64,000 bases of DNA, from contig JAGTQC010000003.1 in assembly GCA_018396535.1 (NCBI GenBank), positions 988-64,987 on the forward strand. The letters are read 5' to 3'. The stretch comes from Candidatus Bathyarchaeota archaeon (GTDB lineage: Archaea > Thermoproteota > CALKCG01 > B24 > DRYS01). How positions within the stretch are numbered: the first letter of the stretch is position 1; every line of letters starts with the position of its first letter. The notes under the pieces are model-generated. The model was not told the origin of the DNA. It did not search any database and saw only the letters and a program-made list of their open reading frames with translations. The position numbers and the translations under genes are program-made. This document shows positions 20,085 to 43,186 of this stretch, piece after piece.

Positions 20085-20552
20085 CTAGTATTCTGGTACG
20101 AATACTAGAGCAGCTACTGCAGATCCATATAACCCTGCGGGTACTCTTAAAACCTCTATCCTATAGCCTACATCCCTTAAGGCAACGCCTCTAACCTTAC
20201 ACATCTCGTTCAACCTAGCTTGTAGATTCTTCCTCAATTGCTCCTCATCCATATTACCGTGTACCTCAGCTACTAATCCGTAATCACTCCCCTCTATAAA
20301 CCCCCACGCTATCCCAGCTCCTAGCAATTCTCCCGGATCCCCCTCTATGTGAGCCATAACGGTGAACGTTATAGCTCCAGCCTCTATATTGTAGTAGTCT
20401 ATCATCACAGAGCCTCTAGGTATGATCGAACTAACCGGGACGAGGTTACATTGAGCTATACCTGCATTAATTAATGCCTGATCGAAAGCATTAAGTTTAG
20501 ATATAGCACTTAACGCCTTGCCACCTGTTACGAAGAACTTTTTAGGTAGGAT
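20085..20552 (-). CDS. pdaD: Pyruvoyl-dependent arginine decarboxylase (PdaD) proenzyme; start codon is non-canonical or unresolved
   Basis: I extended the track ORF (20085..20408, GTG start) upstream in frame. This recovers ILPKKFFVTGG...LNAFDQALINAGIAQCNLVPVSSIIP, including the Ser-Ser self-cleavage site. An in-frame TGA sits immediately upstream of the ATC at 20552. A GAGGTGGTG SD-like element lies 7 nt upstream. Confidence 0.6.
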   Translation of the reverse strand: MLPKKFFVTGGKALSAISKLNAFDQALINAGIAQCNLVPVSSIIPRGSVMIDYYNIEAGAITFTVMAHIEGDPGELLGAGIAWGFIEGSDYGLVAEVHGNMDEEQLRKNLQARLNEMCKVRGVALRDVGYRIEVLRVPAGLYGSAVAALVFVPEY

Positions 20553-20775
20553 TCAACACCACCTCTCTACTAAGTTTCAGAGCAAAACAATTATAGGTAG
20601 AATAAAAACGTTTTGTGCTTATTTAGATGTATACACTAATTCTATCTCCTTCTCTAGATTCTCAAGCCCCCTCTCTAATCTTCTAAACAAAGTTTAACTA
20701 TCCATAGGCTAATCTTAAACATCTAATAATATACACTATCGAGTGATACACCTTTATACATAGTGGTGCTCCAGC

Positions 20776-21651
20776 TTGACCCTTAACGATCTAGGTAAGC
20801 TTAGATATAGGTTTGAATGGATTAGAATACCCGTATTTACGGTAGAATGTCTGAGAAAGTCTCTGAGAGAATCTAGGATTACGCTAGATCTAGGTCTATC
20901 CTGGATCGAATGTAAAATCCTCGATAATTATCTGCATATAGGTGAACTACGTATAGATATATCTAGCATAGACGAGTTAAGGGATGAGCGTGCTATATAC
21001 ATCCTAGAAGATAATGTATTCAAGCCTATAGCATTTTGGGGTGGTAATCACTTCTATAAACTCGTATCTATCAAGTATGATACTGCACCTACGCTGGAGA
21101 TAGATGGGATACATATGCATAGAGTATCCGGTATAACCCCATGGAGCGATGCGAAACTTAAAGCTTCGTATCTAAGGATACGAAGAGGGATGAGGGTCTT
21201 AGATATAGGTACTGGTCTAGGCTATACAGCTATATGGTGTAGACGTATGGGTGCTTCGGTCTATACTGTGGAGAAGGATCCATGGGTTCTCAGGATTGCA
21301 TCCTATAATCCTTGGAGTAGATTCCTAGAGGATCCAGGTATATGTATACTACTCCTAGATGCGTGTAAACTCGTAGAGATTCTACCAGACTCAGTCTTTC
21401 ATAGAATACTCCATGATCCTCCTAGGTTTAGCTTAGCTGGAGAGTTATACAGCCTAGAATTCTATAGAGAGCTTTACAGGATACTAAGACCTGGAGGCCT
21501 ACTCTTACACTATACTGGTAGACCAGGTACGATTCAAGGTCGTAGACTTGTAAACGGTATCTCTCGTAGATTGCATGATGCTGGATTCGAAGATTTAGAA
21601 TGGATAGATGATGTTCAAGGCTTTAGATGTCTTAAACCTAGTCTCTCATAG
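20776..21651 (+). CDS. Class-I SAM-dependent methyltransferase with a D-P-P-(R)-F amino-methyltransferase-like motif and an N-terminal domain of unknown function
   Basis: VLDIGTGLGYTAI (motif I), HDPPRF (motif IV-like). 291 aa. Confidence 0.55.
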   Translation: MTLNDLGKLRYRFEWIRIPVFTVECLRKSLRESRITLDLGLSWIECKILDNYLHIGELRIDISSIDELRDERAIYILEDNVFKPIAFWGGNHFYKLVSIKYDTAPTLEIDGIHMHRVSGITPWSDAKLKASYLRIRRGMRVLDIGTGLGYTAIWCRRMGASVYTVEKDPWVLRIASYNPWSRFLEDPGICILLLDACKLVEILPDSVFHRILHDPPRFSLAGELYSLEFYRELYRILRPGGLLLHYTGRPGTIQGRRLVNGISRRLHDAGFEDLEWIDDVQGFRCLKPSLS

Positions 21652-23137
21652 CTTCTATCCTAAAGTTTGTGATACCCATCCGTCTACCAGCTCTCTCTAA
21701 TCTACGTAGACATTTACGTGTAAGTTTACCAACTTCATCTTCATCTACATAGATTACAGCTTCATCCCCTTGTATCTCGACTCTACACCTATCTACATAT
21801 CTATTCAGAACGTTTTCTAGAATGGATGATGTCTCCGATATCTCCCTACGCTTAATAGGTACAACAAACGTCCTCTCTCCGAAGACGTATATCTCGTATT
21901 CAACCTCTCCTGTGAGGTAATCCTTAACCTGGACTACAGGTCTAGCTAGATCGGAATCTCGTAGACCATGAGGTATCTTAACTATAGTCTCCAGAGAGTA
22001 GACCTTTGTAACGATACCATTCTCTAGGAATATAACCGTATCTATTATGGATGGTATCATACCTAGTTCAACTCTACCCACAAATCTTTGGATAGCATCT
22101 ATAGGGGAGGTAGCGTGGACAACCCCTATCATACCTACGCCAGCTAGCCTTAGATCTGCATATAGCTTGAAATCGTTTGTACCCCTCATCTCATCGAAAA
22201 CCGTATAATCCGGTCTACTTAGTAGGAGTACATCGTATATCTCATCAGGGTTTGAAACATTCTTAGAGTATTGAGTTATAGCTTCTGGAAGCTGTAGATC
22301 TCTAGGAGATTCTATAGTCTTAACGATCTTCCCTAGGCTTAGATAGTATTCGGCTAAGGCTTGAGCGAAGGTGGATTTACCCATACCCGGAGCTCCAGCT
22401 ATTAGAATACCTTCTGCTTGTGTTTCAAGTCTACTTACAAGCTTAGATGGCAGCTTATAATCCTTGAGCGTAAGTTTAACTATAGGTTTAACAGCCGTGA
22501 TCTCTAAACCATCGCTGAACGGTGGGTAAGTTACGACTATCCTATATGGCCCCATCTGGAATATCTTAGATCCATCCCTATCTATCTCTAAATATGCCTC
22601 TCCACTCCGCACCCTATCCATAAACCCCTCCACCAACGCTTCGAGATCTTCCCTACTCAAGATAACCTCTTCAAGAGTTTCAAAACGCCAATTACCTGGT
22701 GTACCGCGTTTAAGTCTAGGTTGAACCCCCTCCTTAAGATGAACGGACATGACATTCTCCTTGAAGAAGTCTTCGAGTTTAAGTTTAGAAGATGGAGGCA
22801 TATACATACATTTTACGTTTAAAGCCTCGGCTATACTAGCTAACGCTAGATCGCATGTAACTATCGTCGCATCTATCCTTAAAGCTTCTCCTATAAGAGC
22901 TTCAGGTGTTTCACTCTGTACAGGTAGTATGTTTAGCGATATACCCCTCTCTCTAAGAAGCTTCACAGATTCTTCTAGATTTTGGAGAAGCCATTTATCA
23001 CCGCTTAGAAATCTTTCACGTATCTTCCTTAGAACGATATCTGGTATTAATACCTCGGAATCAGGCATCTCCTCTAAGGCAAGCTTCCTAATGAAGCCAT
23101 TTCTCAACGCTGATAGATCTACTATAAACTTTGGCAA
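21638..23137 (-). CDS. PIN-domain / P-loop ATPase (PilT-like) / KH-domain protein (archaeal PINc-ATPase family)
   Basis: N-terminal PIN-like acidic residues. Walker A GAPGMGKST. C-terminal KH-like region. 499 aa. Confidence 0.65.
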   Translation of the reverse strand: MPKFIVDLSALRNGFIRKLALEEMPDSEVLIPDIVLRKIRERFLSGDKWLLQNLEESVKLLRERGISLNILPVQSETPEALIGEALRIDATIVTCDLALASIAEALNVKCMYMPPSSKLKLEDFFKENVMSVHLKEGVQPRLKRGTPGNWRFETLEEVILSREDLEALVEGFMDRVRSGEAYLEIDRDGSKIFQMGPYRIVVTYPPFSDGLEITAVKPIVKLTLKDYKLPSKLVSRLETQAEGILIAGAPGMGKSTFAQALAEYYLSLGKIVKTIESPRDLQLPEAITQYSKNVSNPDEIYDVLLLSRPDYTVFDEMRGTNDFKLYADLRLAGVGMIGVVHATSPIDAIQRFVGRVELGMIPSIIDTVIFLENGIVTKVYSLETIVKIPHGLRDSDLARPVVQVKDYLTGEVEYEIYVFGERTFVVPIKRREISETSSILENVLNRYVDRCRVEIQGDEAVIYVDEDEVGKLTRKCLRRLERAGRRMGITNFRIEAMRD

Positions 23138-23187
23138 GTCCCGGTTTTCTCCAAGCTATAACGGTAGTAGCTTTATATAAACATTGT

Positions 23188-24087
23188 CTAGGATAATAGG
23201 TGGCTATACCTCATAGCTGAGTCTGGTGCTAACGTTACGATAATGCCCTCCCTAAGTTCTTCAGCAATCTTTAAAGCTATACATAGATTCGCACCAGTGG
23301 AGAGACCGCCCATAATACCCTCAAATCTTATAGCATACCTCATATACTTCAACGCATCTTCAAATCCAACACTCTCCACTCTATCGATAAACCTACGGTA
23401 TCTTTCGTATATCCCAGGTATTCCGTTATGTGAAAGCCCCTCTATCCTCTCTCCTACCGAGCCTGGGCCATCGAGGATAGCAGCTCCTCTAGGCACTACT
23501 CCTACGATCTTTACGTTACTCAGCTTCTCTTTAAGATACATAGCTACCCCAGATATCGTCCCGCATGTACCTATACCCATAACGAAGGCATCAAGATACC
23601 CCCCAGTCTGCATATAGATTTCTCTAGCTGTCGTTTCATAGTGAGCTTTCACATTAGCTTCATTATCATATTGATTAAGGAATACCCCTCCCTCCCTATA
23701 CGCTATCTCCCTAGCAGTCTCTAGAGCTTTTCTATACCCACCAGATACTTCGACAACCTCTGCACCTAGAGCTTTAATCAATCCTATCTTAACAGGTGAA
23801 GCCTCCTCCTCTACGACTAATATCGCTTTATAACCCAGCCTCGATGCAACCCAAGCTACAGATAATGCTGTATTACCACTCGATGCCTCCACGATAACAC
23901 CGCCCGGCTTAAGTTTCCCCTGCCTCTCCGCCTCTCTAACCATATAGATAGCTATCCTATCCTTATGGCTACCAGTAGGATTCATATACTCTAACTTAAC
24001 TAGTACCCTAGCCATACCATCTCTTCTAAGCTTCTTAAGCTCTACTATCGGAGTACCCCCTACTAGGGATAGTATATCCCGATACAT
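23188..24087 (-). CDS. Cysteine synthase / O-phosphoserine sulfhydrylase family (PLP-dependent, fold type II)
   Basis: NPTGSHKDR PLP-lysine motif, SSGNT, and a GIGTCGT glycine loop. Confidence 0.8.
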   Translation of the reverse strand: MYRDILSLVGGTPIVELKKLRRDGMARVLVKLEYMNPTGSHKDRIAIYMVREAERQGKLKPGGVIVEASSGNTALSVAWVASRLGYKAILVVEEEASPVKIGLIKALGAEVVEVSGGYRKALETAREIAYREGGVFLNQYDNEANVKAHYETTAREIYMQTGGYLDAFVMGIGTCGTISGVAMYLKEKLSNVKIVGVVPRGAAILDGPGSVGERIEGLSHNGIPGIYERYRRFIDRVESVGFEDALKYMRYAIRFEGIMGGLSTGANLCIALKIAEELREGIIVTLAPDSAMRYSHLLS

Positions 24088-24353
24088 TCTATACCAGCCG
24101 CTTCTAGCTCTGCTAGGTGAAAGATTTAACCTCTCCTTTATCAGATCGCTATGTTAGATAAAAACTCTTCTAATAACTCCATCTTATAGAGCGTTATACG
24201 AGTCTAGCTCTATATGTAAGGATTTAACGATTCACCCCCTAAGACTATAATCACCGTTAAAGTTCTCATAATATGTCTGAATCTACGATGCAGTTCCGTC
24301 TGGATTGTAAGGAAATACATTTCTACTAGTTATCTTATTCTATATGTTTAGCT

Positions 24354-25424
24354 ATGCTATTCTTCATATTTACCACAGGCATATGTAATCTTAGATGCGA
24401 TTATTGTGGTGGAAGTTTCTCTGAAAGAATGGTTCCGGCTAAACCTGTATATGATATGGGTTCTCTCCTCAAGTTTCTCGAAGATACATATCCCGTATCC
24501 ATAGCATTCTATGGTGGGGAGCCTTTACTGAACGCTAAATTCATATCAGCGTTTATGGATAGGTTTGATGCTGAAAGATATATAATTCAAACTAATGGTC
24601 TACTAATTGATAGACTAGACCCTGCATATTGGCGTAGAATGGATACGATTCTGTTATCCATAGATGGTGTAGAGTATGTTACAGATAAGCATAGGGGTAT
24701 CGGCGTATATGATACAGTAGTTAGATCCGCTCGTAAGCTTAGGCTTATAGGCTTCGAGGGGGATCTTGTAGCGAGAATGACTGCTACAGAAGATACCGAT
24801 ATATATAGGGATGTATATCACCTTGTAGAGTTAAACCTATTCGATCATATCCATTGGCAGCTTAATGTCGTATGGTCTCCTCCATGGTCTAACTTCGAAG
24901 AATGGTGTAGAAGCTACCTAGATGGTTTAGTAAGGTTATTGGATCTATGGGTATATAAGATGGAGGATGAGGGGAGGGTTCTAGGGATAGCCCCCTTCCA
25001 GGGGTGTTTGAAACGTATCCTTCTAGGAGGATCCGCTCCTCCATGTGGTGCTGGTGTAGATGCATATGCGATATCTACAGATGGCTCTATCCTCGCATGC
25101 CCTATAGCGGTAGATGTAGAATGGGGTAGGTTAGGAGATATACGCTTAGATAGGTTCGGTGAATTGAAGAAAGCTCCAGAGATAGGTGAACCATGTACAT
25201 CTTGCATAGAGTTTAGGGTATGTGGAGGTAGATGTCTATACGCCTATATGGAGAGGCTGTGGGGTCTGGAAGGTTTCCGTAAGGTATGTAGTATAACACT
25301 ATCTATGATATCGCTTTTAAAGAGTCGTCTAGATACTATTATAGACTCTCTAGAATCTCACGGTCTATCATTAGATGATATAACCTACCCGCTGTTCAAT
25401 AATAGCGTAGAGATAATACCTTAA
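24354..25424 (+). CDS. Radical SAM enzyme with a C-terminal SPASM/twitch auxiliary-cluster domain (peptide or protein-modifying maturase-like)
   Basis: CNLRCDYC CxxxCxxC. GGEPLL. C-terminal Cys cluster CGAG...CP...CTSC...CGGRC. Confidence 0.7.
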   Translation: MLFFIFTTGICNLRCDYCGGSFSERMVPAKPVYDMGSLLKFLEDTYPVSIAFYGGEPLLNAKFISAFMDRFDAERYIIQTNGLLIDRLDPAYWRRMDTILLSIDGVEYVTDKHRGIGVYDTVVRSARKLRLIGFEGDLVARMTATEDTDIYRDVYHLVELNLFDHIHWQLNVVWSPPWSNFEEWCRSYLDGLVRLLDLWVYKMEDEGRVLGIAPFQGCLKRILLGGSAPPCGAGVDAYAISTDGSILACPIAVDVEWGRLGDIRLDRFGELKKAPEIGEPCTSCIEFRVCGGRCLYAYMERLWGLEGFRKVCSITLSMISLLKSRLDTIIDSLESHGLSLDDITYPLFNNSVEIIP

Positions 25425-31182: not shown

Positions 31183-31227
31183 ATTATAATCCGTAATAAT
31201 CTCCCTCCTCTAACGTGGTGTTAAATA

Positions 31228-31938
31228 TTGGTTTGGCTCCTAGCTAGAATCGATCCCCCAATTGTATGTCGTATAGTTAGAAGGCTGAATAGGTTCGTAG
31301 TCTTAGTCTCAGTGGATGGAAAGCTTGTTAAAGCCTACCTAAATAATACTGGTAGGCTTAGAGATTATCTTATCGAGGGTAGGTTAGCATACGCTTCTAC
31401 CGCTCCTCCTAATCGAAGAACAACCTATAATCTCTTCGCTATAGATGAGGATGGCTTAGCAGCTTTAATCGATACCCGTCTTCAAACAGTGTTCTTCGAG
31501 GAAGCCTTGAATAGAGGGTTGATACCATGGCTTAGCGGGTTTAGGATAGTTAAAAGGAATGTTCGCCTCTATTCCTCGCTGATAGACTATCTACTTAAAC
31601 TCGAAGAGAAGGATGTGTATATGGAGGTTAAAAGCGCGGTTATGAGGATTGATAGATCCGTAGCTTCATATCCAGATTGCCCATCGATTAGAGGTAGGAA
31701 GCATGTGGAGGATCTTATATCTGCTTCATCTAGAGGTTTAAACTGTGTTATCCTCTTCCTAGCCTCCCTACCCTATGTAGATACATTTAAACCTAATAGT
31801 AGTGTGGACCCGAAGCTAACGGATCTATTGAAACTAGCTATTAGAGCAGGTGTTCTCGTTAAGGCTGTATCCATGTATTATGATCCATCGGATTCATCTA
31901 TATATCTAGATAACCCTGAGCTTAGAGTAGAATTATAA
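31228..31938 (+). CDS. sfsA: SfsA (sugar fermentation stimulation protein) family nuclease-fold protein
   Basis: RRLNRFVVLVSVDGKLVKAYLNNTGRL matches the SfsA N-terminal signature (KRYKRF...DG...HCPNTG). TTG start. Confidence 0.55.
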   Translation: MVWLLARIDPPIVCRIVRRLNRFVVLVSVDGKLVKAYLNNTGRLRDYLIEGRLAYASTAPPNRRTTYNLFAIDEDGLAALIDTRLQTVFFEEALNRGLIPWLSGFRIVKRNVRLYSSLIDYLLKLEEKDVYMEVKSAVMRIDRSVASYPDCPSIRGRKHVEDLISASSRGLNCVILFLASLPYVDTFKPNSSVDPKLTDLLKLAIRAGVLVKAVSMYYDPSDSSIYLDNPELRVEL

Positions 31939-31949
31939 ATCAGGGTATA

Positions 31950-32588
31950 GTGGCTGTGATAGAGCAGCTCCTGGATAGGGTAAGGTATTTAATCGGGAGT
32001 AGTGTAGGGGAGAGAGTTAGACTTAGGATGGAGGAGTTTAGAAGACTGGGTAGGTATGGGTCTGATAAGGATCTATTCTTGGAGCTATGCTTCTGTATAC
32101 TCACTGCCAGATTTAGTGCTGAAAGATGTATACGTATACAGGAGAGGATGGGTGAGGGGTTTATAACGCTACCGGAGGATTATCTAGCTAGAGAGTTGAA
32201 GAAGCTCGGTCATAGGTATCCATATATCAGAGCTAGGTATATAGTTGAAGCTAGACGGCATATACATAAACTTAGATGGCTTATAGACTCCTTCGATAAC
32301 GGTGTAGAAGCTAGATCCTGGCTTATCGAGAATATCAAGGGTCTAGGATATAAGGAGGCCAGCCATTTCTTAAGGAATGTAGGGTTTGATGATGTAGCTA
32401 TAATCGATTTCCATATACTAAACCTCCTAGCTAGGTATGGTATAATAGAGAAGCCTAAGACTTTAACTCCTAGAAGGTACCGTGAGATAGAATCTATACT
32501 TAGAGTTATAGCTTCAAAGCTGAATGTAACATTGGGTGAGCTAGACCTATACTTGTGGTATATAGAAACGGGAAAAATACTTAAGTAA
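31950..32588 (+). CDS. ogg: N-glycosylase/DNA lyase (archaeal Ogg2-type 8-oxoguanine DNA glycosylase, HhH-GPD)
   Basis: Size (~212 aa), LFLELCFCILTARFSAE..., and a GLGYKEASHFLRNVG HhH-GPD motif with an FDDVAIIDFH catalytic region. Confidence 0.6.
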   Translation: MAVIEQLLDRVRYLIGSSVGERVRLRMEEFRRLGRYGSDKDLFLELCFCILTARFSAERCIRIQERMGEGFITLPEDYLARELKKLGHRYPYIRARYIVEARRHIHKLRWLIDSFDNGVEARSWLIENIKGLGYKEASHFLRNVGFDDVAIIDFHILNLLARYGIIEKPKTLTPRRYREIESILRVIASKLNVTLGELDLYLWYIETGKILK

Positions 32589-32611
32589 TTTATGGAATCG
32601 AGTAATCCTCC

Positions 32612-33268
32612 CTATTTAAGTTCGTATGCAAATATTATATCATTCCTTCGAGGTATACCGAATCTACCTACCTCCTCGTGAGCGAGATCACGAGTGTATA
32701 GTATCTTACCACCGAGCATATACTCCGCTATGAAGGCTGGTATATTATCATTTTCATGGGATACTATAAGTCTCTTAACATTATTTTCGTAAGCTATCTG
32801 CTTCAGCTTATCTATCATAAGTCTGAATAATCCTGTGCCTTGGTATCTTGGGTGAACGCTCATCTTCCAGTATTGTATAGAGATATTCTCCTCTGGATCC
32901 ATGGTGAAGAGGAAATCTAGGAATCCAGCTGGCTCTCCATCTATGTAAATGCATAGTGTCTTTACGTTATACTCTTTATGCTTATATGGGTAGAAGTCTG
33001 GTGGAATCCACTCCCTGGATAGATCGATACTCTCGGCTGGAGGGTATCCGAGGATATCCCATAGCGTCTCAAATACACTTCTCTTCTTCGGATCTTGCTT
33101 CATCTTATCTGTAATCTCGATTTGTATATCTCCGCTTATCTCGGGTCTAGATATATGGTGTGCTCCGATGATAGCTACTCTGGCACACCTATAGCATAGA
33201 TATTCTCCATCTATAGCGCATCTATACTGTGCTATCCTACCACATCTTGTGCATATAGGTATCTCCAT
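32612..33268 (-). CDS. GNAT-family N-acetyltransferase with an N-terminal C4 zinc-ribbon
   Basis: CTRCG...CYRC zinc ribbon. C-terminal HPRYQGTGLFRLM acetyl-CoA binding motif. Confidence 0.55.
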   Translation of the reverse strand: MEIPICTRCGRIAQYRCAIDGEYLCYRCARVAIIGAHHISRPEISGDIQIEITDKMKQDPKKRSVFETLWDILGYPPAESIDLSREWIPPDFYPYKHKEYNVKTLCIYIDGEPAGFLDFLFTMDPEENISIQYWKMSVHPRYQGTGLFRLMIDKLKQIAYENNVKRLIVSHENDNIPAFIAEYMLGGKILYTRDLAHEEVGRFGIPRRNDIIFAYELK

Positions 33269-33397
33269 ACATGATACACCTCGAAGATTAGGATCAAAGG
33301 ATAGCTGAACTCGAGTGGTATAAGTTTTCTCTATCCAGTTATATCAGGAGAAAATTCTAAGCTAGCAACATAATATATATATAGATGGTTTAGCGGC

Positions 33398-34030
33398 ATG
33401 AATATCCTTAATGTAGTGAAGGTAGTTGTAGGTCCTCTAGCAACGAACTGTTATATAGTATGGTGTGAATCTACACGTGAATCCTGTATAATAGATCCAG
33501 GTTTCGAAGGGGAGGTTATAATCGAGAGGGTTGAAGATCTAGATTTACATGTGACTACGCTATTATGTACTCATGCACATTTCGATCATATAGGAGCTGC
33601 AAGCTTCATTAGGGATAGGTTTGAAGCAAAACTATGTATTCATGAAGCTGATACACCCTACCTAGATACATATTCTAGGATGGCTGAAGATTTCGGTTTC
33701 AATAGGGTAGATACACCTAGTCCAGATATACTTCTAAAGGATGGCGTTATCCTACGTATAGGTGAATCGAAGTTGAAAATTATACATACGCCTGGGCATA
33801 CGCCTGGAAGCTGCTCTATAATCTCTGAAGGTAGAGTATTTACTGGTGATACATTATTCTCGGGTAGTACTGGTAGATGGGATCTACCAGGTGGTAGTTT
33901 CTACTATCTCAAACTTTCGTTAAAGCGGTTGATGATGTTACCTACCGATACGCTGATCCTACCTGGTCACGGGCCATATACTACGATATGGAGGGAGAGA
34001 ATGTATAATCCATTGATAAGGTGTCTATGA
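33398..34030 (+). CDS. MBL-fold metallo-hydrolase (glyoxalase II-like)
   Basis: THAHFDHIGA HxHxDH motif. HTPGHTPG. 210 aa. Confidence 0.75.
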   Translation: MNILNVVKVVVGPLATNCYIVWCESTRESCIIDPGFEGEVIIERVEDLDLHVTTLLCTHAHFDHIGAASFIRDRFEAKLCIHEADTPYLDTYSRMAEDFGFNRVDTPSPDILLKDGVILRIGESKLKIIHTPGHTPGSCSIISEGRVFTGDTLFSGSTGRWDLPGGSFYYLKLSLKRLMMLPTDTLILPGHGPYTTIWRERMYNPLIRCL

Positions 34031-34081
34031 GCATCGGTGGTTTACCCTTGTAGGGATGTTAAACTTTAAGATGGTTATTGT

Positions 34082-34378
34082 ATGTGTATAGTAGTGTTGT
34101 GGGGTATGCCTCGTTATATACTGAGGGTTTGTATGCCTGCTAGGGATTGGCATAGAGTATCTGATTTCGTATCCGATATAAAGAATTCCAGGGTTATAAA
34201 ACGTATAGTGACGAGAATATTTCCTGATAGACCTGATTTAGATGCGTTAGAATTGGTTCTTTTAATCGAGTGTTCGAAGAGTTATGTGTTGGAGATCGAG
34301 AGGGAGCTGGCATCTAGGACTTGCGGTACCATAGGCTTCTTCGTGATATATCCTCTAACCGATAACTCGATGGCTTAA
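34082..34378 (+). CDS. Small hypothetical protein (98 aa) upstream of the GH127 gene; coding status uncertain
   Basis: ORF only. No recognisable motif. Confidence 0.2.
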   Translation: MCIVVLWGMPRYILRVCMPARDWHRVSDFVSDIKNSRVIKRIVTRIFPDRPDLDALELVLLIECSKSYVLEIERELASRTCGTIGFFVIYPLTDNSMA

Positions 34379-34398
34379 CTCTTGGAGAAACTAATTAT

Positions 34399-36303
34399 AT
34401 GTGTAGGTGGATAAGTATGCCCTATAATACCGTTATCATAGATACATCATCTAGTCCGTATGCTAAGCTTCACCCTATACCTATCGAAGAAGTACGTCTT
34501 GAAGATGGATTTTGGGCTCCTAGGCTTAAGATTCTTAGAGAGGTTACCATTCCATCTCAGTACAGTCTACTTGAGAGTACTGGGCGTATCGATAACTTTA
34601 GACGTGCAGCAGGGAAGGTATCTAAACCGTTTTCAGGCTTGATCTTCAACGATAGCGATGTATATAAGTGGATAGAAGCTGTAGCATTCCTTCTCGCATA
34701 TGGTTTCGATGAGAATCTCTACAAGCTCTCCAGATCTGTTGTAGAGGAGGTTGTAGCTGCTCAGGATGATGATGGTTATCTCAATACATACTTCATGTTT
34801 GAATTTAAGAATATGAGATGGCGTAACCTTAGAGATAGCCATGAGTTATACTGTGCTGGCCATCTTATGCAAGCTGGGGTAGCATACTATAGATCTACCG
34901 GTAGGAGGGATCTTCTCGATTCTGCTATAAGGTTTGCGGATAACATATACGATACATTCGTAGCTAAAGGCTTCCGATGCGTAGATGGTCATCCTGAAGT
35001 TGAGATGGCTTTAGTAGAATTATACCGTACGATCAGGGATAGTAGGTATCTAGATCTAGCATGCTTCTTCATAGATAATCGAGGTCTAGGTCTTATAGGT
35101 GGAAGTCCATACCATATAGATCACAAACCGTTTAGAGAGCTTTCAGAGATAGTGGGGCATGCGGTACGTGCACTCTACTTGAATTGTGGAGCTACAGATG
35201 TATACATGGAGATAGGGGATGATAGGATTTGGGAAGCGTTACAGCGTCTATGGCGTAGTATGGTGTATCGTAAGATGTATATAACGGGGGGTGTCGGATC
35301 CAGGTATGAGGGTGAAGCCTTCGGTGATGATTATGAGCTTCCAAATTATAGAGCATATTCTGAAACTTGTGCTGCGATAGCTAGCTTCATGTGGAATTGG
35401 AGGATGCTTAACGCTAGTATGGATGCATGCTATACGGATATTATGGAGCTTGCATTGTATAACGCTATCCTATCAGGTATATCGTTGGATGGTAGATCAT
35501 ACTTCTATGTAAACCCGTTAGCGGATAGGGGTCGTCATAGGAGGCAGGATTGGTTTACATGTGCATGCTGCCCACCTAATATAGCTAGGCTTATAGCTTC
35601 GATCCCAGGGTATATCTATTCTAAATCCGTAGATGGGTTATGGGTTAACCTGTATATTCAGAGTACGGTTTCTACTAATCTAGAATGTGGTAGAGTTAGG
35701 TTGAAGCAGGTTACCGATTACCCATGGGATGGTAGGGTGAAGCTTATTGTCGAGCCGGAGAGGGAGGATGAATTCTCCATATACATACGTATACCTGGAT
35801 GGTGTCGTAACTTTAGCGTAGAGGTTGATAGGGAGAGGATCGATGCTAAGGTTAGGCCGCCGTCATATCTAGAGGTTAGACGGGTATGGAGGTATGGGGA
35901 TTACATAAGTTTGTATATGGATATGCCTGTAGAGCTTATGGTTTCTCATCCATGGGTTACCGAGAATAGTAGTAGAGTCTCTATAGTGAGAGGTCCGTTA
36001 GTATATTGTGTAGAGCAGGTTGATAATGAGGGGTTTGATATATGGGATCTAGCTATCGATCGTAGTATAAGATTCGAGTTGAAGCTATGTGAGGATTTTT
36101 TAGGACGTATAGTGAGGATAGTGGGGGATGGGTATACCTTAGAGTTTGAAGGTGGAGAGATGCTCTATACCAATATAGATAATCTACGTTATAGGGTTAG
36201 AAGGGTTAGGTTTAATGCTATACCCTACTATGCTTGGGCGAATAGGGGTCCTGGATCTATGATCGTATGGATCCGTTTAATCGATGGGTATTTGAAAGTA
36301 TAG
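34399..36303 (+). CDS. Glycoside hydrolase family 127 (DUF1680) beta-L-arabinofuranosidase-like
   Basis: CACCPPN zinc/catalytic cysteine motif characteristic of GH127 (HypBA1-type). 634 aa. Confidence 0.75.
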   Translation: MCRWISMPYNTVIIDTSSSPYAKLHPIPIEEVRLEDGFWAPRLKILREVTIPSQYSLLESTGRIDNFRRAAGKVSKPFSGLIFNDSDVYKWIEAVAFLLAYGFDENLYKLSRSVVEEVVAAQDDDGYLNTYFMFEFKNMRWRNLRDSHELYCAGHLMQAGVAYYRSTGRRDLLDSAIRFADNIYDTFVAKGFRCVDGHPEVEMALVELYRTIRDSRYLDLACFFIDNRGLGLIGGSPYHIDHKPFRELSEIVGHAVRALYLNCGATDVYMEIGDDRIWEALQRLWRSMVYRKMYITGGVGSRYEGEAFGDDYELPNYRAYSETCAAIASFMWNWRMLNASMDACYTDIMELALYNAILSGISLDGRSYFYVNPLADRGRHRRQDWFTCACCPPNIARLIASIPGYIYSKSVDGLWVNLYIQSTVSTNLECGRVRLKQVTDYPWDGRVKLIVEPEREDEFSIYIRIPGWCRNFSVEVDRERIDAKVRPPSYLEVRRVWRYGDYISLYMDMPVELMVSHPWVTENSSRVSIVRGPLVYCVEQVDNEGFDIWDLAIDRSIRFELKLCEDFLGRIVRIVGDGYTLEFEGGEMLYTNIDNLRYRVRRVRFNAIPYYAWANRGPGSMIVWIRLIDGYLKV

Positions 36304-36308
36304 TCTTG

Positions 36309-37712
36309 TTATCTGAAGTGTTTAGCCATCTCCTCGTTCTCGCTTATGGATAGTAGAGCGTTTATTACGCCTTCAGCCTGCCTGGTATTCTTTGTTCTAA
36401 CATCTACTATCACCCAGTTGAATAGCGTATCTCTCCCACCTTCTAGATATGCTTCGAGAGCCCACTCCATCCTAAGGAGTCTGGGGTAGATTACGTAGTT
36501 CATTATACGTTTAGGTAGCTTCTTTACTCCAATCCTATGTACACCCTTTCCATCTATCTCTACAGGTATCTCTACAGCTACGTTATCTGGTATACCCTCT
36601 ACTACTCCTTGATTCGTAACGTTAACCTGGTAGACCCCCCTTATATCGTTTACTATAGAGTCTATGATAGGTACTATCGATTCTCTACTCTTCCTAGGTT
36701 GTAGTAGTTGAGTTAGCGGTGTCGTTTCATCTTTTATAGCGGATATAGCTTTATTCAGCCATTCTTCATGTCTATCTAGGTAGATCTTCCATCCGATCTC
36801 TGAATCTGGTCCACCGGTAGGTCCGAACCATCTCTTCTTAACTCTCAGATTCCAGTGGTATTTCCATGTTCCTCCACGTACTGTATCACCTACAGGGTAT
36901 AATCCGTAGCATCTATACATATCTACTGCAGCTGGAGACATCTGTATATCGAATGGGCTTCTCTGCTTTCTACGCCATATCCTCCAGTACCTCTCTGAAT
37001 CCTTCTCTATCCATTCATCTATGAGTGGGTATGCATCCCTATCATCATACCTAAACTTTGTAAGCCAGATTACATGGTTGAATCCTATACACTCGAACTC
37101 GACCTTCTCCGGATCTAATCCTATCGTCTCCGCTATCTCGGAGTAGCCTAGATGCCCATGGCATAAGCCTACAACCTTAACCTTTGTCTCCCTGGAGAGT
37201 AGTGTTGTTCCCTCGAATACAGGGTTTGCTAGTAGGAATAGCCATGCATCTCTGCTTAGATCCTCTACATCTCTAGCTATATCCATCATGAGTTTGAACT
37301 GGTAGTAGCCCCATATCGTATGGTAGTCTGATACCATATTCCACTCGACGCTGTTTATACCTCTATAGTAGCCGTATTCTTCGCATATACTCCGCATCCT
37401 CTCGTAGTATCCATGCCCGCGGGCTAGGGCTGTATTTATAACGAAATCTGCATCCTCTATGGATTCCCTCCTATCAAGCGTCTTCTCGAATTTGAATTCA
37501 GCTTTAACTTCGGATGCATATCTCCTTGCGAAATCGTATACGAGGTTTAGCCTCTCCTCGTTTATATCCATGAAGGAGATCGTGCTCCCGTAGAGGCTGG
37601 GTGTGAGGCATAGGTCGCGGATTAGGGTTGCAGACCAAGCTATACTACCAGCGCCTATTACAGAAATCTTTATATCTATCATAGATTCCACCGAACGATA
37701 TAGATCATCCAC
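36309..37712 (-). CDS. Glycoside hydrolase family 4 (NAD+/Mn2+-dependent alpha-glucosidase/galactosidase or 6-phospho-glycosidase family)
   Basis: N-terminal ISVIGAGSIAW Rossmann motif and a VGLCHGH motif typical of GH4. 467 aa. Confidence 0.75.
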   Translation of the reverse strand: MDDLYRSVESMIDIKISVIGAGSIAWSATLIRDLCLTPSLYGSTISFMDINEERLNLVYDFARRYASEVKAEFKFEKTLDRRESIEDADFVINTALARGHGYYERMRSICEEYGYYRGINSVEWNMVSDYHTIWGYYQFKLMMDIARDVEDLSRDAWLFLLANPVFEGTTLLSRETKVKVVGLCHGHLGYSEIAETIGLDPEKVEFECIGFNHVIWLTKFRYDDRDAYPLIDEWIEKDSERYWRIWRRKQRSPFDIQMSPAAVDMYRCYGLYPVGDTVRGGTWKYHWNLRVKKRWFGPTGGPDSEIGWKIYLDRHEEWLNKAISAIKDETTPLTQLLQPRKSRESIVPIIDSIVNDIRGVYQVNVTNQGVVEGIPDNVAVEIPVEIDGKGVHRIGVKKLPKRIMNYVIYPRLLRMEWALEAYLEGGRDTLFNWVIVDVRTKNTRQAEGVINALLSISENEEMAKHFR

Positions 37713-37772
37713 TAATCCTCTTAAGCTTTACGTATATGGTCTAGGATCTGCTAGGTTTATTATCGTATTAGG

Positions 37773-38162
37773 TTAGCCTATTAGGCGGTCTATTATAGTC
37801 TTAACCTTCTCTATCTTCTTCAACATATGCTCCAGATACTCTATACCTTCATCTGTTATAGTGTATATCCTTTTAGCTGGGCCTCCATCATCTGTCTCCC
37901 ATCTAGAGTGTAGTAAGCCGTGTGCTTCTAGTTTACGTAGTAACCCGTATACGAGTGGTTTAGGTACATCTAGATTATACTTCTCCTTTAGGAGTGAGTG
38001 TATTTCGCTTCCATGCATAGACTTCTCCTTAACTAGTTTGAGTATAGCTATGTGGAGTAGTCCACGTATAGGTCCGAGATGTATCGGGGGGTGGTGTGGA
38101 TGGGGTAGCCTATGCTCGCATCCATGTGGATGTTTAGGGTGTATGTGTGGATCTATACACAT
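37773..38162 (-). CDS. PadR-family winged-helix transcriptional regulator with a His-rich N-terminal extension
   Basis: LLHIAILKLVKEKSMHGSEI...YGLLRKLEAHGLL PadR core. N-terminal HIHPKHPHGCEHRLPHPHHPPIH. Confidence 0.75.
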   Translation of the reverse strand: MCIDPHIHPKHPHGCEHRLPHPHHPPIHLGPIRGLLHIAILKLVKEKSMHGSEIHSLLKEKYNLDVPKPLVYGLLRKLEAHGLLHSRWETDDGGPAKRIYTITDEGIEYLEHMLKKIEKVKTIIDRLIG

Positions 38163-38168
38163 GTCTAC

Positions 38169-38202
38169 TCAGATATCTAGGTATATCAGATATCTAGATA
38201 TA
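38169..38202. promoter_or_regulatory. Two direct copies of TCAGATATCTAG(G/A)TATA, each with an AGATATCT palindrome, in the divergent PadR/GH51 intergenic region; candidate PadR operator
   Basis: Copies at 38169-38185 and 38186-38202, 7 nt upstream of the PadR ATG. Confidence 0.4.
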
Positions 38203-38260
38203 AGTGTTTACCATCATCGAGGATAGAGATTGTTTCTAAAGATTTAAGTCTAGTAGATGG

Positions 38261-39814
38261 GTGTTAACTCTCTCTTCTAGGGGGTTATGGATGGGGTGTT
38301 GTAGGTTAGTCGTAGGGTTGGATGAACGTGTAAGCGATATAGATCCTAATATCTTTGGGCATTTTATCGAGCATCTTGGGCGTTGTATATATCATGGTAT
38401 ATGGGTTGGTAGAGGTTCTGATATACCTAATATTGATGGTTTGAGGATGGATGTAGTAGAGGCTTTCAGATCTATCGGTGTGCCTATTATTAGATGGCCT
38501 GGCGGCTGTTTCGCGGATACGTATCACTGGATGGATGGTGTTGGTCCTGTGGAGCGTAGGCCTAGGAGGGTTAATATATGGTGGGGTGGTGAGGAGACTA
38601 ACGAGTTTGGGACGGATGAGTTTATTAAGTTATGTAGGCTTGTAGGTGCTGAGCCGTATATATGCGTGAATGTTGGCTCCGGTAGTCCTGAGGAGGCTGC
38701 TGCTTGGCTTGAATACTGTAACTATACTGGTGGTAGTAGGTATGCGAGGCTTAGGGTTGAGAATGGTTATCCAGAGCCGTATAGGGTTAGGTATTGGGGT
38801 GTTGGTAATGAGAGTTGGGGTTGTGGCGGATCGTTTGATCCTGTATACTATGCTTGGGAGTATCGTAGGTTTGCTACATTTCTTAAACAGACTGATCCAT
38901 CGGTTAAACTAGTAGCTTGCGGGCATACATCTACCGATTGGAATCTACGCTTAATGGAGTCTTTGAGGAATTTCATCCATCTAATCGATTACCTATCTAT
39001 ACACTACTACTTCTTCCGTAATCATCAACGTTATGGTGGTGATGTTGATTTCACAGATGAGCAGTATCTGAATCTTTTATTCGATATTCAGCATCTAGAG
39101 TATGAGATTAAGCAGGCTATATCTATAGTAGACTTCTTCTCCGAGGGTAGGAAGGATGTATGGATAGCTGTGGATGAGTGGGGTGTATGGCATCCTCAAG
39201 CTACTACCGAGAATGGATTATACCAGCAGAATACTCTTAGAGATGCTATACTAGCAGCATCCATCCTCAACCTATTCATCAAATATTCGAGGAGGGTTAG
39301 GATGGCTAATATAGCTCAAGCTGTTAACGTACTACAGAGTATATGTTTAACTAGGGGTAGGGATACGGTTCTAACACCTACATACCATGTTTTCAAATTG
39401 TATAAGCCTCATATAGCTGGTATAGCTTTGGGAACGAGGGTTGAATCCCCCGTCATAAAGGAGCCATCTAGAGATGATTTCGTAGGTCTCCGCGGTGTTC
39501 GTAGAAGGCTTGAATCTCTGAAAGCTATAGATGCATCAGCATCTATAGATCTAAATAGTAGTAGACTAGTTATAACTATAGTGAATAGAAGTCTAGATGA
39601 AGATATCGATATAGAAGTGGTAGTTAACGGAGGATACAGGATAGCTGAGAGTGAATACGCATACATAACATCTAAAAGTGTAAGATCCTACAACGATTTC
39701 GATACACCTAACAATATACGTATAACCGAGGAATCCATAGATATCAAGAGTAACAGATTCACCCTAAACCTTCAGAAACATTCGATAAATAGGCTAATAC
39801 TAAAGCTAAGCTGA
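38261..39814 (+). CDS. abfA: GH51 alpha-L-arabinofuranosidase
   Basis: NIFGHFIEHLGRCIYHGIWVG...WPGGCFAD...WGVGNESWGCGG motifs typical of GH51. 517 aa. Confidence 0.8.
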   Translation: MLTLSSRGLWMGCCRLVVGLDERVSDIDPNIFGHFIEHLGRCIYHGIWVGRGSDIPNIDGLRMDVVEAFRSIGVPIIRWPGGCFADTYHWMDGVGPVERRPRRVNIWWGGEETNEFGTDEFIKLCRLVGAEPYICVNVGSGSPEEAAAWLEYCNYTGGSRYARLRVENGYPEPYRVRYWGVGNESWGCGGSFDPVYYAWEYRRFATFLKQTDPSVKLVACGHTSTDWNLRLMESLRNFIHLIDYLSIHYYFFRNHQRYGGDVDFTDEQYLNLLFDIQHLEYEIKQAISIVDFFSEGRKDVWIAVDEWGVWHPQATTENGLYQQNTLRDAILAASILNLFIKYSRRVRMANIAQAVNVLQSICLTRGRDTVLTPTYHVFKLYKPHIAGIALGTRVESPVIKEPSRDDFVGLRGVRRRLESLKAIDASASIDLNSSRLVITIVNRSLDEDIDIEVVVNGGYRIAESEYAYITSKSVRSYNDFDTPNNIRITEESIDIKSNRFTLNLQKHSINRLILKLS

Positions 39815-39883
39815 TGGTTGAAATCCATATAGAATGTTATGGAAAAACTAGGAGGGGGTATACCAGATACCTATATACATAGA

Positions 39884-39956
39884 AGCCGGGGAGGGGATTC
39901 GAACCCCTGTGATGCGGGTCTGCAGCCCGCCGCCTACGCCTCTCAGCCACCCCGGC
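39884..39956 (-). tRNA. tRNA-Cys (anticodon GCA)
   Basis: Minus-strand sequence GCCGGGG...GCGGG-CTGCAGA-CCCGC...AGGGGTTCGAATCCCCT-CCCCGGC-T. 73 nt, no encoded CCA. Confidence 0.8.
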
Positions 39957-40055
39957 TCTACTATAGGAGGATAGGTGCTCGACTTCTATTAAGGTTTAAC
40001 TCTATAACCAGGCTTAGCTTTTTATACAGTGAAGCTTCAACTTATGGCTATCTAG

Positions 40056-40889
40056 GTGGTGTATATGAAGCTAATCTTCGGCGCTATGAACGATCCATCT
40101 AAGGATATAGTAGAGGAGGTTAGATCTATAGCGTTACTCGGCTTCGACTATATAGATCTTACAGTAGAGGGTCCTAGAGCTTCTACTAGAGATATCATGG
40201 ATAGGTTGAGAGAGTTGAGGGATGAGATATCTAGATTAGATCTGGATATAGTAGGTCATACAGCATGGTTTCTAGAATTAGCCCATCCATATGAACGTAT
40301 ACGTAGAGTTTTCCTAGAGGAAGCTTTAGAAGCTTTAGATATACTAGCTAAGCTAGATGTCGATAAGGTTACGTTCCACCCATTTCTTCTAGCTTCAAGC
40401 TTGTATCGTAGACAACCTTATAGATCTAAACTTCTAGAATACCTCATATCATCCCTTAGGGAGGTTAGTATTAGAGCAGACGATAACGGTATGAAGGTTA
40501 TGATAGAGAATATGGATGGTGGTAGGATGTGGCGTATAGATGAGTATGCTAGGATTATTAGCGAAGTAGATGTATACTTCCATCTAGATGTAGCTCATGC
40601 AAACCTGGATGTAGAATCGCTTAATCTACGATCATTTCTAGATAGATTCAAGCCTGGTGATAGACTCCTCCATATACATATATCCGATAATGTAGGAGGA
40701 TCAGCATCTAAGGGTTGGGATCTACATCTACCGATAGGTGTAGGATCGATAGATTGGGAGGAGGTATTCAGAATACTAAAGGATTACGGTTATAGTGGAA
40801 CTATAACGCTAGAAGTATTCTCTAAGGATAGGGATTATCTTAGGATGAGTCTAGATAAGGTTAGGAATCTATCATCGAGGATAGCTTAG
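40056..40889 (+). CDS. Sugar-phosphate isomerase/epimerase (xylose-isomerase-like TIM barrel) family protein
   Basis: His/Glu/Asp metal-ligand pattern spaced as in AP-endonuclease-2/xylose-isomerase-like TIM barrels. 277 aa. Confidence 0.6.
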   Translation: MVYMKLIFGAMNDPSKDIVEEVRSIALLGFDYIDLTVEGPRASTRDIMDRLRELRDEISRLDLDIVGHTAWFLELAHPYERIRRVFLEEALEALDILAKLDVDKVTFHPFLLASSLYRRQPYRSKLLEYLISSLREVSIRADDNGMKVMIENMDGGRMWRIDEYARIISEVDVYFHLDVAHANLDVESLNLRSFLDRFKPGDRLLHIHISDNVGGSASKGWDLHLPIGVGSIDWEEVFRILKDYGYSGTITLEVFSKDRDYLRMSLDKVRNLSSRIA

Positions 40890-41526
40890 ATAGCTTATAG
40901 GCTATCCTAGTAATCCTAGATGATATAGTGGAAGCTCTACCTACAGGTCTACAAAGCTTCATAGATATAGCTTCGATTATATCCTTTAGATTAACGCTAT
41001 CGCATTCGATTATGGTATATGAATCACCTATCGTATCCGGTATATGGCTATCACTACTACCGAGCTTAGCCGCTCCTAAAACCTCTGCTAGCCTAGAATT
41101 CCTAGTATAAGCTACCCTATATGGTCTTAGAGAAGCGTTTAAAACTTCTACACAATCGATCCTGGATAGCCTAGTATATCTGGAATCACCTATCCTCATA
41201 GGGTTTGGATGAGCTAATACGACTATACCTCCAAGCCTATGTATATAGTCTATGAAGCTTTGAGCATAGGTTCTCCCATGCACACATACATCTGTAACAC
41301 CTAAACCTATCATATGCCCGATTTCAGTCTCCACTTCTAATCCAGGTATAGCGATAATCCTACCGTAAATCCTCTCTACTAATCCAGATCTAGGTGCTAT
41401 ACCGTGATCAGTAATAGCTACACCATCCAACCCCTTCATCCTAGTATAAGCTATCAAGCTAGATATACCTATAGATGAATCCCTAGATCTAACCGTATGT
41501 ACGTGTAGATCTAATTTAATTCTCAG
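40861..41526 (-). CDS. PHP-domain metal-dependent phosphoesterase; start codon is non-canonical or unresolved, and it overlaps the metG stop
   Basis: Extending the frame upstream gives ...LRIKLDLHVHTVRS... (PHP motif I) immediately after an in-frame TAG. No ATG/GTG/TTG precedes the TTG at 41457. Candidate CTG at 41524-41526 or ATT at 41518-41520. GGTGA lies 6 nt upstream of the CTG. Confidence 0.55.
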   Translation of the reverse strand: MRIKLDLHVHTVRSRDSSIGISSLIAYTRMKGLDGVAITDHGIAPRSGLVERIYGRIIAIPGLEVETEIGHMIGLGVTDVCVHGRTYAQSFIDYIHRLGGIVVLAHPNPMRIGDSRYTRLSRIDCVEVLNASLRPYRVAYTRNSRLAEVLGAAKLGSSDSHIPDTIGDSYTIIECDSVNLKDIIEAISMKLCRPVGRASTISSRITRIAYKLSKLSSMIDS

Positions 41527-43186
41527 CTAGCTTCACCCTAAGCTTAGCCTCCTCCTCCTCTACATCTACCTTAGATATCTTCTCAAAGAATATCTTCGGC
41601 TTCCCTATCCTAGCACCGGGTTTGAACTCCATGTACACCTCATCCCACCTAACCATCTCATCTAAACCGAGGATTCTTCTAAGCTCGATCGCAGTGTATG
41701 GTAGATACATGAATAATAGTACACTAAGCTTATAGATTATCTGTAAAGCTACGTATATAGTCCTAGCAGCTTCATCCCTAGAAACCCTCCAAGGCTCCCT
41801 TTCGTTAAGTAATCTATTCCCGAGAGCGGATAATTCTAGTATATGGGAGAGCCCCTCCTTAAACCTGAAGCTCTCTAAGCTTGATTCGACTTCTCTAACC
41901 AATCTATCAGCCTCCTCTAGATACATCCTATCCTCATCCATCAGAATCTTTGGATCAGGTACCTCGCTGTTAAACAATCTATATGTTAGAGTTAGCGTTC
42001 TATACAAGAAGTTAGCTAGATTACCTATAAGTTCATCATTAACTTTAGACATGAAATCGATCCATCTAAAATCGCTATCCCTAAACTCAGGTGCTATCCT
42101 AGCAGCGTAGAATCTAATCATATCTGGATGAAACTTCTCGAGCATCTCATGCAGCCATACAACCCATCCTCGACTAGTAGATAGCTTACGCCCTTCTAAA
42201 GTTACAAATTCATTAACTACCACATTCTCAGGTAGTATATAGCCTCCGTGAGCTATTAGTAGAGCTGGGAATAGTATGGTATGGAAGAATAGGTTATCCT
42301 TACCTATGAAGCAATACAGTTCTGTACTACTATCTAACCAGAAGCGTTTCCAAGAATCGGATTCCCCCTTCTCCATAGCCCAATCCTTAGTAGCTGAGAT
42401 GTATCCTAGGAGATTCTCAGCCCAGTTATATATAACCTGCTTCTCAGCACCTGGGAACGGTGCTGGAGGACCCCAATCGTAATCTCTAGTTATATCCTTA
42501 TCCTTTAATCCCTCTCTTTTAAGCCAGTCTATAGTCTTATTATATGTAGCCCGTCTCCAATTCTTCTTAGGCTCTACATACCTTAATACATCCTCTGTTA
42601 AAGCTGAAAGTTTTAGAAACCAGTGTATAGTCCTCTGTTCTATAGGTTTAGCTCCGCATATACTACATCTAGGGTTTAATAGCTCCCATGCCTCGTACCA
42701 TCTACCACATACCTCGCATACATCTCCATACTGATCCTCCGCTCCACAATATGGGCATACACCTTTAACAAACCTATCTGGTAGAGGCCTTCTACAATTA
42801 GGACAGTATAATTGTGTAATCTCCTTAGGATATACGTAGCCTTTACGGTATAGATTCTCATAGAATTCTCTAACAGTATCATAGTGTATAGGTTTAGATG
42901 TTCTAGAGTATATATCGAAGCTTATAGCTAGTTTTTCGAAGACGGTCTTCTGTATATCGTAATACTTATCGCATAATTCTCTAGGTGTTAAACCCTGTTT
43001 TAAAGCTTCTAGGATTACAGAGGCGGCATTTTCATCGGTTCCGCAGACGAAGAGGACTTCATCACCCTTCATCCTTCTAAACCTAGCATATATATCTGCT
43101 GGGAGGTATGCTCCAGCTAGATGGCCGAAATGTCTTGGAGCGTATACATACGGGAGAGCCGCTGTTATTAGTATACGCTTACCCAG
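41516..43186 (-). CDS. metG: Methionyl-tRNA synthetase; true start lies upstream of the first ATG, probably CTG at 43184-43186
   Basis: KLSTS (KMSKS) and a zinc knuckle CPYCG...CEVCG. The essential HIGH-region KRILITAALPYVYAPRHFGH lies upstream of the ATG at 43072, directly after an in-frame TGA. GGAGGTG lies 8 nt upstream of the CTG. Confidence 0.8.
   Translation of the reverse strand: MGKRILITAALPYVYAPRHFGHLAGAYLPADIYARFRRMKGDEVLFVCGTDENAASVILEALKQGLTPRELCDKYYDIQKTVFEKLAISFDIYSRTSKPIHYDTVREFYENLYRKGYVYPKEITQLYCPNCRRPLPDRFVKGVCPYCGAEDQYGDVCEVCGRWYEAWELLNPRCSICGAKPIEQRTIHWFLKLSALTEDVLRYVEPKKNWRRATYNKTIDWLKREGLKDKDITRDYDWGPPAPFPGAEKQVIYNWAENLLGYISATKDWAMEKGESDSWKRFWLDSSTELYCFIGKDNLFFHTILFPALLIAHGGYILPENVVVNEFVTLEGRKLSTSRGWVVWLHEMLEKFHPDMIRFYAARIAPEFRDSDFRWIDFMSKVNDELIGNLANFLYRTLTLTYRLFNSEVPDPKILMDEDRMYLEEADRLVREVESSLESFRFKEGLSHILELSALGNRLLNEREPWRVSRDEAARTIYVALQIIYKLSVLLFMYLPYTAIELRRILGLDEMVRWDEVYMEFKPGARIGKPKIFFEKISKVDVEEEEAKLRVKLAEN

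Follow-up and report, generated by a model that had tools for sequence, protein, structure and literature searches.

The window analysed here is a 64,000-nucleotide (nt) stretch of contig JAGTQC010000003.1 (assembly GCA_018396535.1) from an uncultured hot-spring archaeon, assigned to the Bathyarchaeia because its relatives are metagenome-assembled genomes (MAGs) of that group. Three of its genes, all on the minus strand, encode proteins whose conserved N-termini begin just downstream of an in-frame stop codon, with no ATG, GTG or TTG in between: pdaD (pyruvoyl-dependent arginine decarboxylase, 20085..20552), a gene for a PHP-family phosphoesterase (hereafter PHP, 40861..41526) and metG (methionyl-tRNA synthetase, MetRS, 41516..43186). 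A window-wide scan of the 62 non-edge open reading frames (ORFs) of at least 100 codons found this start-less situation in these three only. In each case a Shine-Dalgarno (SD) motif precedes a near-cognate codon, ATC in pdaD and CTG in both PHP and metG, at which translation probably begins. Features described below lie on the minus strand unless stated otherwise.

Relatives were collected in several ways. When the MetRS protein was scanned against species-representative genomes, four MAGs were recovered, all Bathyarchaeia: L001-L003, with 85-87% identity over MetRS residues 1-556, and L004 (isolate B24), with 63%. The pdaD loci L006-L011 belong to the same three sister species and were reached by searching with proteins and looking up contigs. 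The Logan assemblies L005 (pdaD) and L012 (metG and PHP) represent a strain with 95-97% identity to the window, and a metagenome scan added 54 further loci of the MetRS subfamily. For metG and PHP, the clade carrying CTG comprises 8 assemblies (the window, L012, L001-L003 and L020-L022); five sister species share this CTG. For SD spacing, the count runs from the final G of GGAGGTG up to the start codon. Screening every stop-to-stop ORF with blastp against the sister loci proved too noisy, as non-coding frames align too at 85% DNA identity, and was replaced by SD- and start-based scans.

Read from ATC to TAG, pdaD encodes 155 amino acids (aa), with Pfam PF01862 (PvlArgDC) matching residues 2-152 over profile positions 1-161 of 161. 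The product is 86% identical to P0001, whose start is MLPKKFF, and its Ser-Ser region aligns to 1N2M. Direct reading of the minus strand gives GAGGTG GTGTTGA ATC CTA CCT AAA AAG TTC TTC. The proposed start ATC (20550..20552) directly follows an in-frame TGA (20553..20555), and no canonical start precedes the conserved N-terminus, just as the first-pass annotation of this DNA had described. That annotation had also set an SD motif 7 nt from the ATC; this holds for the core GAGGTG (20560..20565) and fails for the 9-mer GAGGTGGTG, which ends 4 nt before it. The core runs into an out-of-frame GTG GTG TTG (20560-20553). The first in-frame canonical codon is a GTG at codon 49 (20406..20408), which is not the real start because the Ser-Ser self-cleavage site is encoded upstream of it.

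Among the relatives, ATG occupies the position of the ATC in L006 (ATG CTA CCT) and in L009-L011 (ATG TTA CCT), where the window and L005 read ATC CTA CCT. In L007 and L008 an in-frame TTG immediately precedes the ATC (TTG ATC CTA CCT). The sister strain L005 is also devoid of a canonical start (TAG AGA GGT GGT GTT GAA ATC), and gene finders call its pdaD as a truncated protein of 106 aa (P0005). Its spacer carries one extra A, TTGAAATC as against TTGAATC in the window, and is thus 8 rather than 7 nt long; in longer view, L005 reads TTGAAATCC and the window TTGAATCC. Further upstream, a TATA-like box TTTTTATT (20601..20608) falls in a block conserved in all relatives (alignment A1). From its position, approximately 50 nt 5' of the ATC, it presumably acts as the TATA element of pdaD, and a leader of about 25 nt is predicted.

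The PHP gene encodes 221 aa from its CTG (41524..41526) and shares 11 nt with the end of metG. Pfam PF02811 (PHP) matches residues 6-43 from profile position 1 onward, and PF13263 matches too. The start region reads GGTGA AGCTAG CTG AGA ATT AAA TTA GAT CTA CAC GTA CAT, so that an in-frame TAG (41527..41529) directly adjoins the CTG and the SD motif GGTGA (41533..41537; AGGTGA in sister species) ends 6 nt from it, both as first annotated. L012 has the same start (TAG CTG AGA ATT AAG CTA). The CTG is invariant in the 8 assemblies of the clade, and nine other loci have ATG there: the clade reads CTG AGR RTT AAR CTN GAT, those nine ATG ARG YTR AAR CTN GAY, and the corresponding N-termini are L-R-[IV]-K-L-D-L-H-V-H and M-[RK]-L-K-L-D-L-H-V-H. 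An ATT at 41518-41520, put forward earlier as an alternative start, is GTT in the sister species; CTG is therefore the candidate selected by comparison. A fusion of MetRS and PHP through a +1 frameshift was considered and is unnecessary, as an independent ATG stands at this codon in the nine relatives. A canonical codon first occurs in frame as the TTG at codon 24 (41455..41457), which lies 3' of the H-x-H metal motif.

From its CTG (43184..43186), metG encodes 556 aa. Pfam PF09334 (tRNA-synt_1g) matches residues 5-398 over profile positions 1-391 of 391, and residue 4 aligns with residue 3 of the P. abyssi MetRS (1RQG). The start region reads GGAGGTG TCTGAGAA CTG GGT AAG CGT ATA CTA ATA ACA GCG GCT CTC CCG TAT. 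In agreement with the first-pass annotation, an in-frame TGA (43190..43192, identical in L012) is separated from the CTG by one codon, GAA, and GGAGGTG (43195..43201) lies 8 nt upstream; in sister species the spacer is 9 nt. The GTG within this SD (43197-43195) is out of frame in the window and in frame in the sister species. The start region of L012, GGAGGTGTCTGAGAACTGGGTAAGCG, is identical to that of the window, including GGAGGTGTCTGAGAACTGGG, even though the two differ elsewhere. The CTG is invariant in the 8 assemblies, where it is codon -7 counted from the T of TAALPY; nine loci, designated class A below, have ATG at -7. A TATA-like box AAATATTTAC (43254..43263), conserved in L001-L003, L012 and L020-L022, would correspond to a predicted leader of ~46 nt. 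No canonical codon occurs in frame until codon 39 from the CTG, an ATG (43070..43072) 3' of the HIGH motif. L012 has ATT in place of this ATG, and the caller's product there is only a 330-aa fragment (P0162).

The spacing of metG had been equated with that of cdc48, a window gene with an ordinary ATG at 62658; the GGAGGTG of cdc48 in fact lies 10 nt before this ATG. A second motif, GGGTG, is found 5 nt before the same ATG (62641-62660, plus strand).

Two other possibilities at the metG start region were considered and rejected. Stop read-through into metG finds no canonical start to draw on, the upstream in-frame sequence being TAG AAG AGG AGT GGA GGT GTC TGA; all three stop codons occur among relatives at the upstream-stop position. 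A regulatory hairpin between the SD (GGAGG) and CTCTCC of codons 10-12 is no stabler than in shuffled sequences (z +1.2 to +1.4). RNAalifold pairing of the SD, over window positions 43150-43201, includes two covarying pairs.

On the opposite strand, the gene for aIF2-beta (43823-44311, plus) adjoins metG. Its conserved start is the ATG at ~43895. An N-terminal extension of aIF2-beta was rejected: the apparent upstream TTG and ATG codons include the TATA box TTTATTAAA, and the real start is the canonical ATG. This ATG follows the TATA box by roughly 31 nt, which suggests a very short leader.

The segments that a canonical start would skip belong to the protein domains, as the Pfam matches begin at profile position 1 in all three genes and at residue 2 in pdaD, 6 in PHP and 5 in metG. 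Orthologue alignments and these profiles, which take in the catalytic motifs, bear out the earlier claim that the conserved N-terminal segments are real. When the window was compared with the sister strain over the stretch 5' of the first canonical codon, 6 synonymous differences were counted in metG, 3 in PHP and 8 in pdaD, giving 17 over the three segments, with 0 non-synonymous differences in each. Since the changes are synonymous only, the segments are evidently translated and under purifying selection in the proposed frame.

This pattern bears directly on the possibility that the genes are truncated or decaying, either making products from the first downstream canonical codon or being pseudogenes. 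Gene callers do yield such proteins, including P0005 (106 aa), P0162 (330 aa) and many MetRS entries of 516-525 aa. However, the products would be devoid of the Ser-Ser site that yields the pyruvoyl group, of the H-x-H motif and of the HIGH motif, the skipped segments have accumulated synonymous change only, and the internal ATG of metG is ATT in L012. RNA folding adds to this. In PHP and metG, the first canonical codon further downstream sits in a stable stem (-18.1 kcal/mol, z -2.07, and -19.4 kcal/mol, z -2.36, respectively), and folding is weak in the three regions of proposed initiation (-9.6 to -10.9 kcal/mol, z +0.4 to +1.4). The TTG at codon 24 of PHP is not a real start, being past the metal motif and buried in such a stem, and neither is the ATG at codon 39 of metG, which is past the HIGH motif, replaced by ATT in L012 and likewise inside a stem. 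The truncated entries have a simple origin in that Prodigal does not consider ATA, ATT or CTG as starts (PMC2848648). Standard gene finders truncate pdaD, PHP and metG because the starts fall outside ATG, GTG and TTG. We consider truncation or decay very improbable.

Three independent sequencing or assembly errors at start codons, the alternative originally offered, have nothing in their favour except the oddity itself. The same arrangement recurs in assemblies from other runs, L005 and L012, and in the sister species. Moreover, of 93 ORFs of 150 codons or more in the sister loci, 90 each give one in-frame match to the window, the remaining three show no frame break, and there are no split genes in the window. 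The assembly is therefore free of random indels, and errors of this kind are an extremely improbable source of the three starts.

Comparison with orthologues, which the first-pass annotation had suggested, places ATG at the candidate codon in relatives of all three genes. While the CTG start is constant in the 8 assemblies, other Leu codons in the metG and PHP segments vary synonymously. The SD-to-start spacers tolerate 1-nt indels (7 and 8 nt in pdaD, 8 and 9 nt in metG), and must for this reason be non-coding. By the common count, SD spacing is 7 nt in pdaD, 7 nt in PHP and 8 nt in metG. Canonical window genes whose SD is 5 nt or longer (n = 23) are mostly spaced by 4-10 nt, with a median of 7-8, which is also their modal spacing. 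At window positions, a chance SD match at an aligned spacing of 6-9 occurs with a frequency of 2.2% for at least 5 nt, 0.48% for at least 6 and 0.09% for at least 7. Three SD matches lying exactly at three homology boundaries are not a coincidence.

We therefore favour SD-directed initiation at near-cognate codons, CUG in PHP and metG and AUC in pdaD, with all three genes intact and expressed, and regard this as likely. The proposal of non-canonical initiation made in the first-pass annotation is thus supported by comparison, through purifying selection, homology to ATG and normal SD spacing. Mechanistically, the strong SD (GAGGTG, GGTGA or GGAGGTG) would pair with the 16S rRNA at its 3' end and position the small subunit, so that the codon 7-8 nt past GGTG would be placed in the P site. 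There, the initiator Met-tRNA would accept a single mismatch, at the first position for CUG and at the third for AUC, and the protein would begin with Met. We infer that initiation takes place at these codons, through the initiator tRNA and with Met as the first residue. The PHP CTG falls within metG, 11 nt from its end, and initiation there may be aided by coupling to ribosomes that terminate on metG.

The out-of-frame canonical codons close to these sites raise another possibility, namely that translation starts at a GTG or TTG in or just after the SD, in another frame, and that programmed ribosomal frameshifting restores the reading frame within the first few codons. Such frameshifting is known near starts and in recoded genes, for instance the +1 shift of bacterial prfB and the -1 shift of S. 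solfataricus fucA1, and the window sites resemble these in having a canonical start nearby in another frame. A GTG GTG TTG directly precedes the start of pdaD and a GTG that of metG; most of the MetRS lineages that have no canonical start carry the GTG in the +1 frame; and L014 has a G6 run that could permit slippage. Unlike prfB and fucA1, however, the window sites have no conserved slippery site or stimulator, and the direction of the shift varies between close strains. The pdaD gene of the window would require +1 and that of L005 -1; metG would require -1 both in the window and in L012, 0 in L001-L003 and +1 in most other lineages. The putative sites (TCT CGG, GCT CGG, CCT AAG, TCT AGC) share no slippery motif, and the constant +1 frame follows automatically from an SD spacing of 7 nt. 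No separate SD lies at a usable spacing from the GTG codons, and between the PHP SD and its CTG there is no out-of-frame canonical codon. As close strains would need opposite shifts with no common slippery site, we consider frameshifting quite improbable.

The MetRS subfamily allows the pattern to be followed more widely. In a database search, about one in three of the subfamily's closest MetRS clusters is recorded as a protein of 516-525 aa that starts after the HIGH motif (many such entries are among P0150-P0174). The start regions compared, L013-L062 and L074-L078, fall into three classes. In class A, the codon at -7 is ATG and an SD is usually absent. Class B has an in-frame GTG or TTG inside a G-rich SD-like motif, a few codons 5' of a Leu codon, and in class C a canonical start is wholly absent. 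Across the 35 distinct start regions of classes B and C, the Leu codon comes 6-9 nt (mode 7) behind GGTG, where class A has its ATG, and is CTG, CTC or CTA, never CTT or TTR. Five of six ATG starts are without an SD, whereas all 35 distinct CTN starts have one, as would be expected if a strong SD compensates for a weak start codon.

Near-cognate candidates are also found in other genes and annotations. In a NurA-like gene 5' of metG (L031-L035, L040 and L054; positions ~145-170), ATT stands where L030 has its ATG (~163), 9 nt after GGAGG, and the proteins begin I-F-E-E-E-K as against M-F-E-E-E-K in L030. The next canonical codon is 54-73 codons downstream. In at least five related MAGs, NCBI annotates MetRS as starting at ATT (e.g. 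P0127, from L074, with ATT at 401-403). Taken together, these cases point to a phenomenon that extends beyond the window.

Several observations weigh against initiation by near-cognate pairing, or against its being the whole account. Out-of-frame GTG or TTG codons adjoin all three sites. The in-frame GTG of the SD in L001-L003 and L020-L022 could be their true metG start. Many lineages of the MetRS subfamily have CTC or CTA as the SD-positioned codon. In L014-L019, L033, L035, L040 and L042 it is CTC, with no near-cognate codon before the HIGH motif, and this CTC start sequence recurs in many independent contigs; a model with one mismatch fails for the CTC and CTA lineages because there is no near-cognate codon in them. 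A different mechanism might also operate in the window. Archaeal initiation is documented for AUG, GUG and UUG only (PMC4705826), and the aIF1 of S. solfataricus discriminates against AUU in vitro (PMC4705826). Literature searches returned no report of CUG or AUC starts in Bathyarchaeia, nor of unusual archaeal metG starts.

The CTC lineages in particular are compatible with SD-anchored initiation independent of near-cognate pairing, in which translation would start at whatever codon the SD sets in the P site, or with an elongator Leu-tRNA or an unusual initiator acting at CUN; the CTG and ATC of the window would then be special cases. Such a scheme fits the 35 distinct MetRS start regions in which CTN, behind an SD-like motif, stands in for the ATG of other lineages, and also the CTC lineages, in many independent contigs, without a near-cognate codon between the in-frame stop and the HIGH motif. 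Initiation with two mismatches is, however, unprecedented at useful levels, and the AUC of pdaD and the AUU of the NurA-like gene fit ordinary near-cognate initiation. In addition, the Leu may be kept for protein reasons, and about half of the CTN lineages, those of class B, have an in-frame upstream GTG or TTG as a possible true start. As an account of the three window genes, we consider it unlikely. The broader proposal, that a strong SD licenses non-near-cognate initiation in Bathyarchaeia and related Thermoproteota, with MetRS as the clearest case and CUN in place of AUG in dozens of lineages, is speculative and on balance doubtful. If true, it would mean start-codon-independent, SD-anchored initiation, or initiation by a Leu-decoding tRNA, and a CUN start of MetRS might link synthesis of the enzyme to the supply of charged initiator tRNA by feedback.

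Near-cognate initiation at CUG and AUC, the reading we prefer, has counterparts in bacteria, where infC starts at AUU and where NCBI translation table 11 permits CTG, ATT, ATC and ATA. The likeness consists in a codon with one mismatch placed behind an SD in an otherwise ordinary gene that has ATG in relatives. By contrast, the window belongs to an archaeon with the eukaryote-type factors aIF1 and aIF2, and 3 of 62 window genes are concerned, including an essential aminoacyl-tRNA synthetase; no regulatory logic of the infC type, in which IF3 regulates its own synthesis, has been established for them. Eukaryotes also initiate at CUG, including by a Leu-tRNA- and eIF2A-dependent route (PMC4705826). 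CUG is the preferred non-AUG codon in that setting, and the CTN pattern of MetRS recalls Leu initiation, although eukaryotic initiation relies on scanning and there is no SD. To our knowledge, no eIF2A-like factor or Leu initiator has been described in archaea.

Documented archaeal initiation uses AUG, GUG or UUG on SD-led or leaderless mRNAs (PMC4705826; for S. solfataricus complexes, PMC11698992). The window mRNAs conform to this in being SD-led, with a motif of the GGAGGUG type at normal spacing, and depart from it in that CUG and AUC are outside the accepted archaeal set. In ribosome profiling of Haloferax volcanii, ~30% of putative alternative initiation sites were near-cognate and were set aside as possible false positives (PMC7261190). 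By those data, archaeal ribosomes can pause or initiate at near-cognate codons; the sites there differ from ours in not being the sole start of conserved essential genes, and the case made for the window is comparative rather than experimental.

If our reading is correct, these loci would provide comparative evidence for CUG, AUC and AUU as sole starts of conserved archaeal genes, essential ones included. The accepted set of archaeal start codons would be widened, and concrete mRNAs would become available for testing the fidelity of aIF1 and aIF2. The complementarity of ATG and CTN in MetRS, together with the CTC and CTA cases, makes it directly testable to what extent SD pairing overrides codon-anticodon checking during initiation in archaea. 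A systematic annotation error is exposed as well, in that callers of the Prodigal type ignore these codons (PMC2848648) and truncate pdaD and PHP in the same way as MetRS. Such truncated entries can mislead metabolic reconstructions and estimates of MAG completeness.

Elsewhere in the window, a tRNA-Ser (CGA) gene of 89 nt lies at 5632-5720 (plus strand). This and a tRNA-Cys gene (39882-39957) are the sole two tRNA genes in the window, and neither is an initiator tRNA. The tRNA-Cys gene falls within a region, ~31200-40050, that has no counterpart in the syntenic sister loci L001-L003, even though L003 runs 10 kb past metG. Synteny with the sister loci picks up again at 40056, and the intervening region may represent an insertion or rearrangement.

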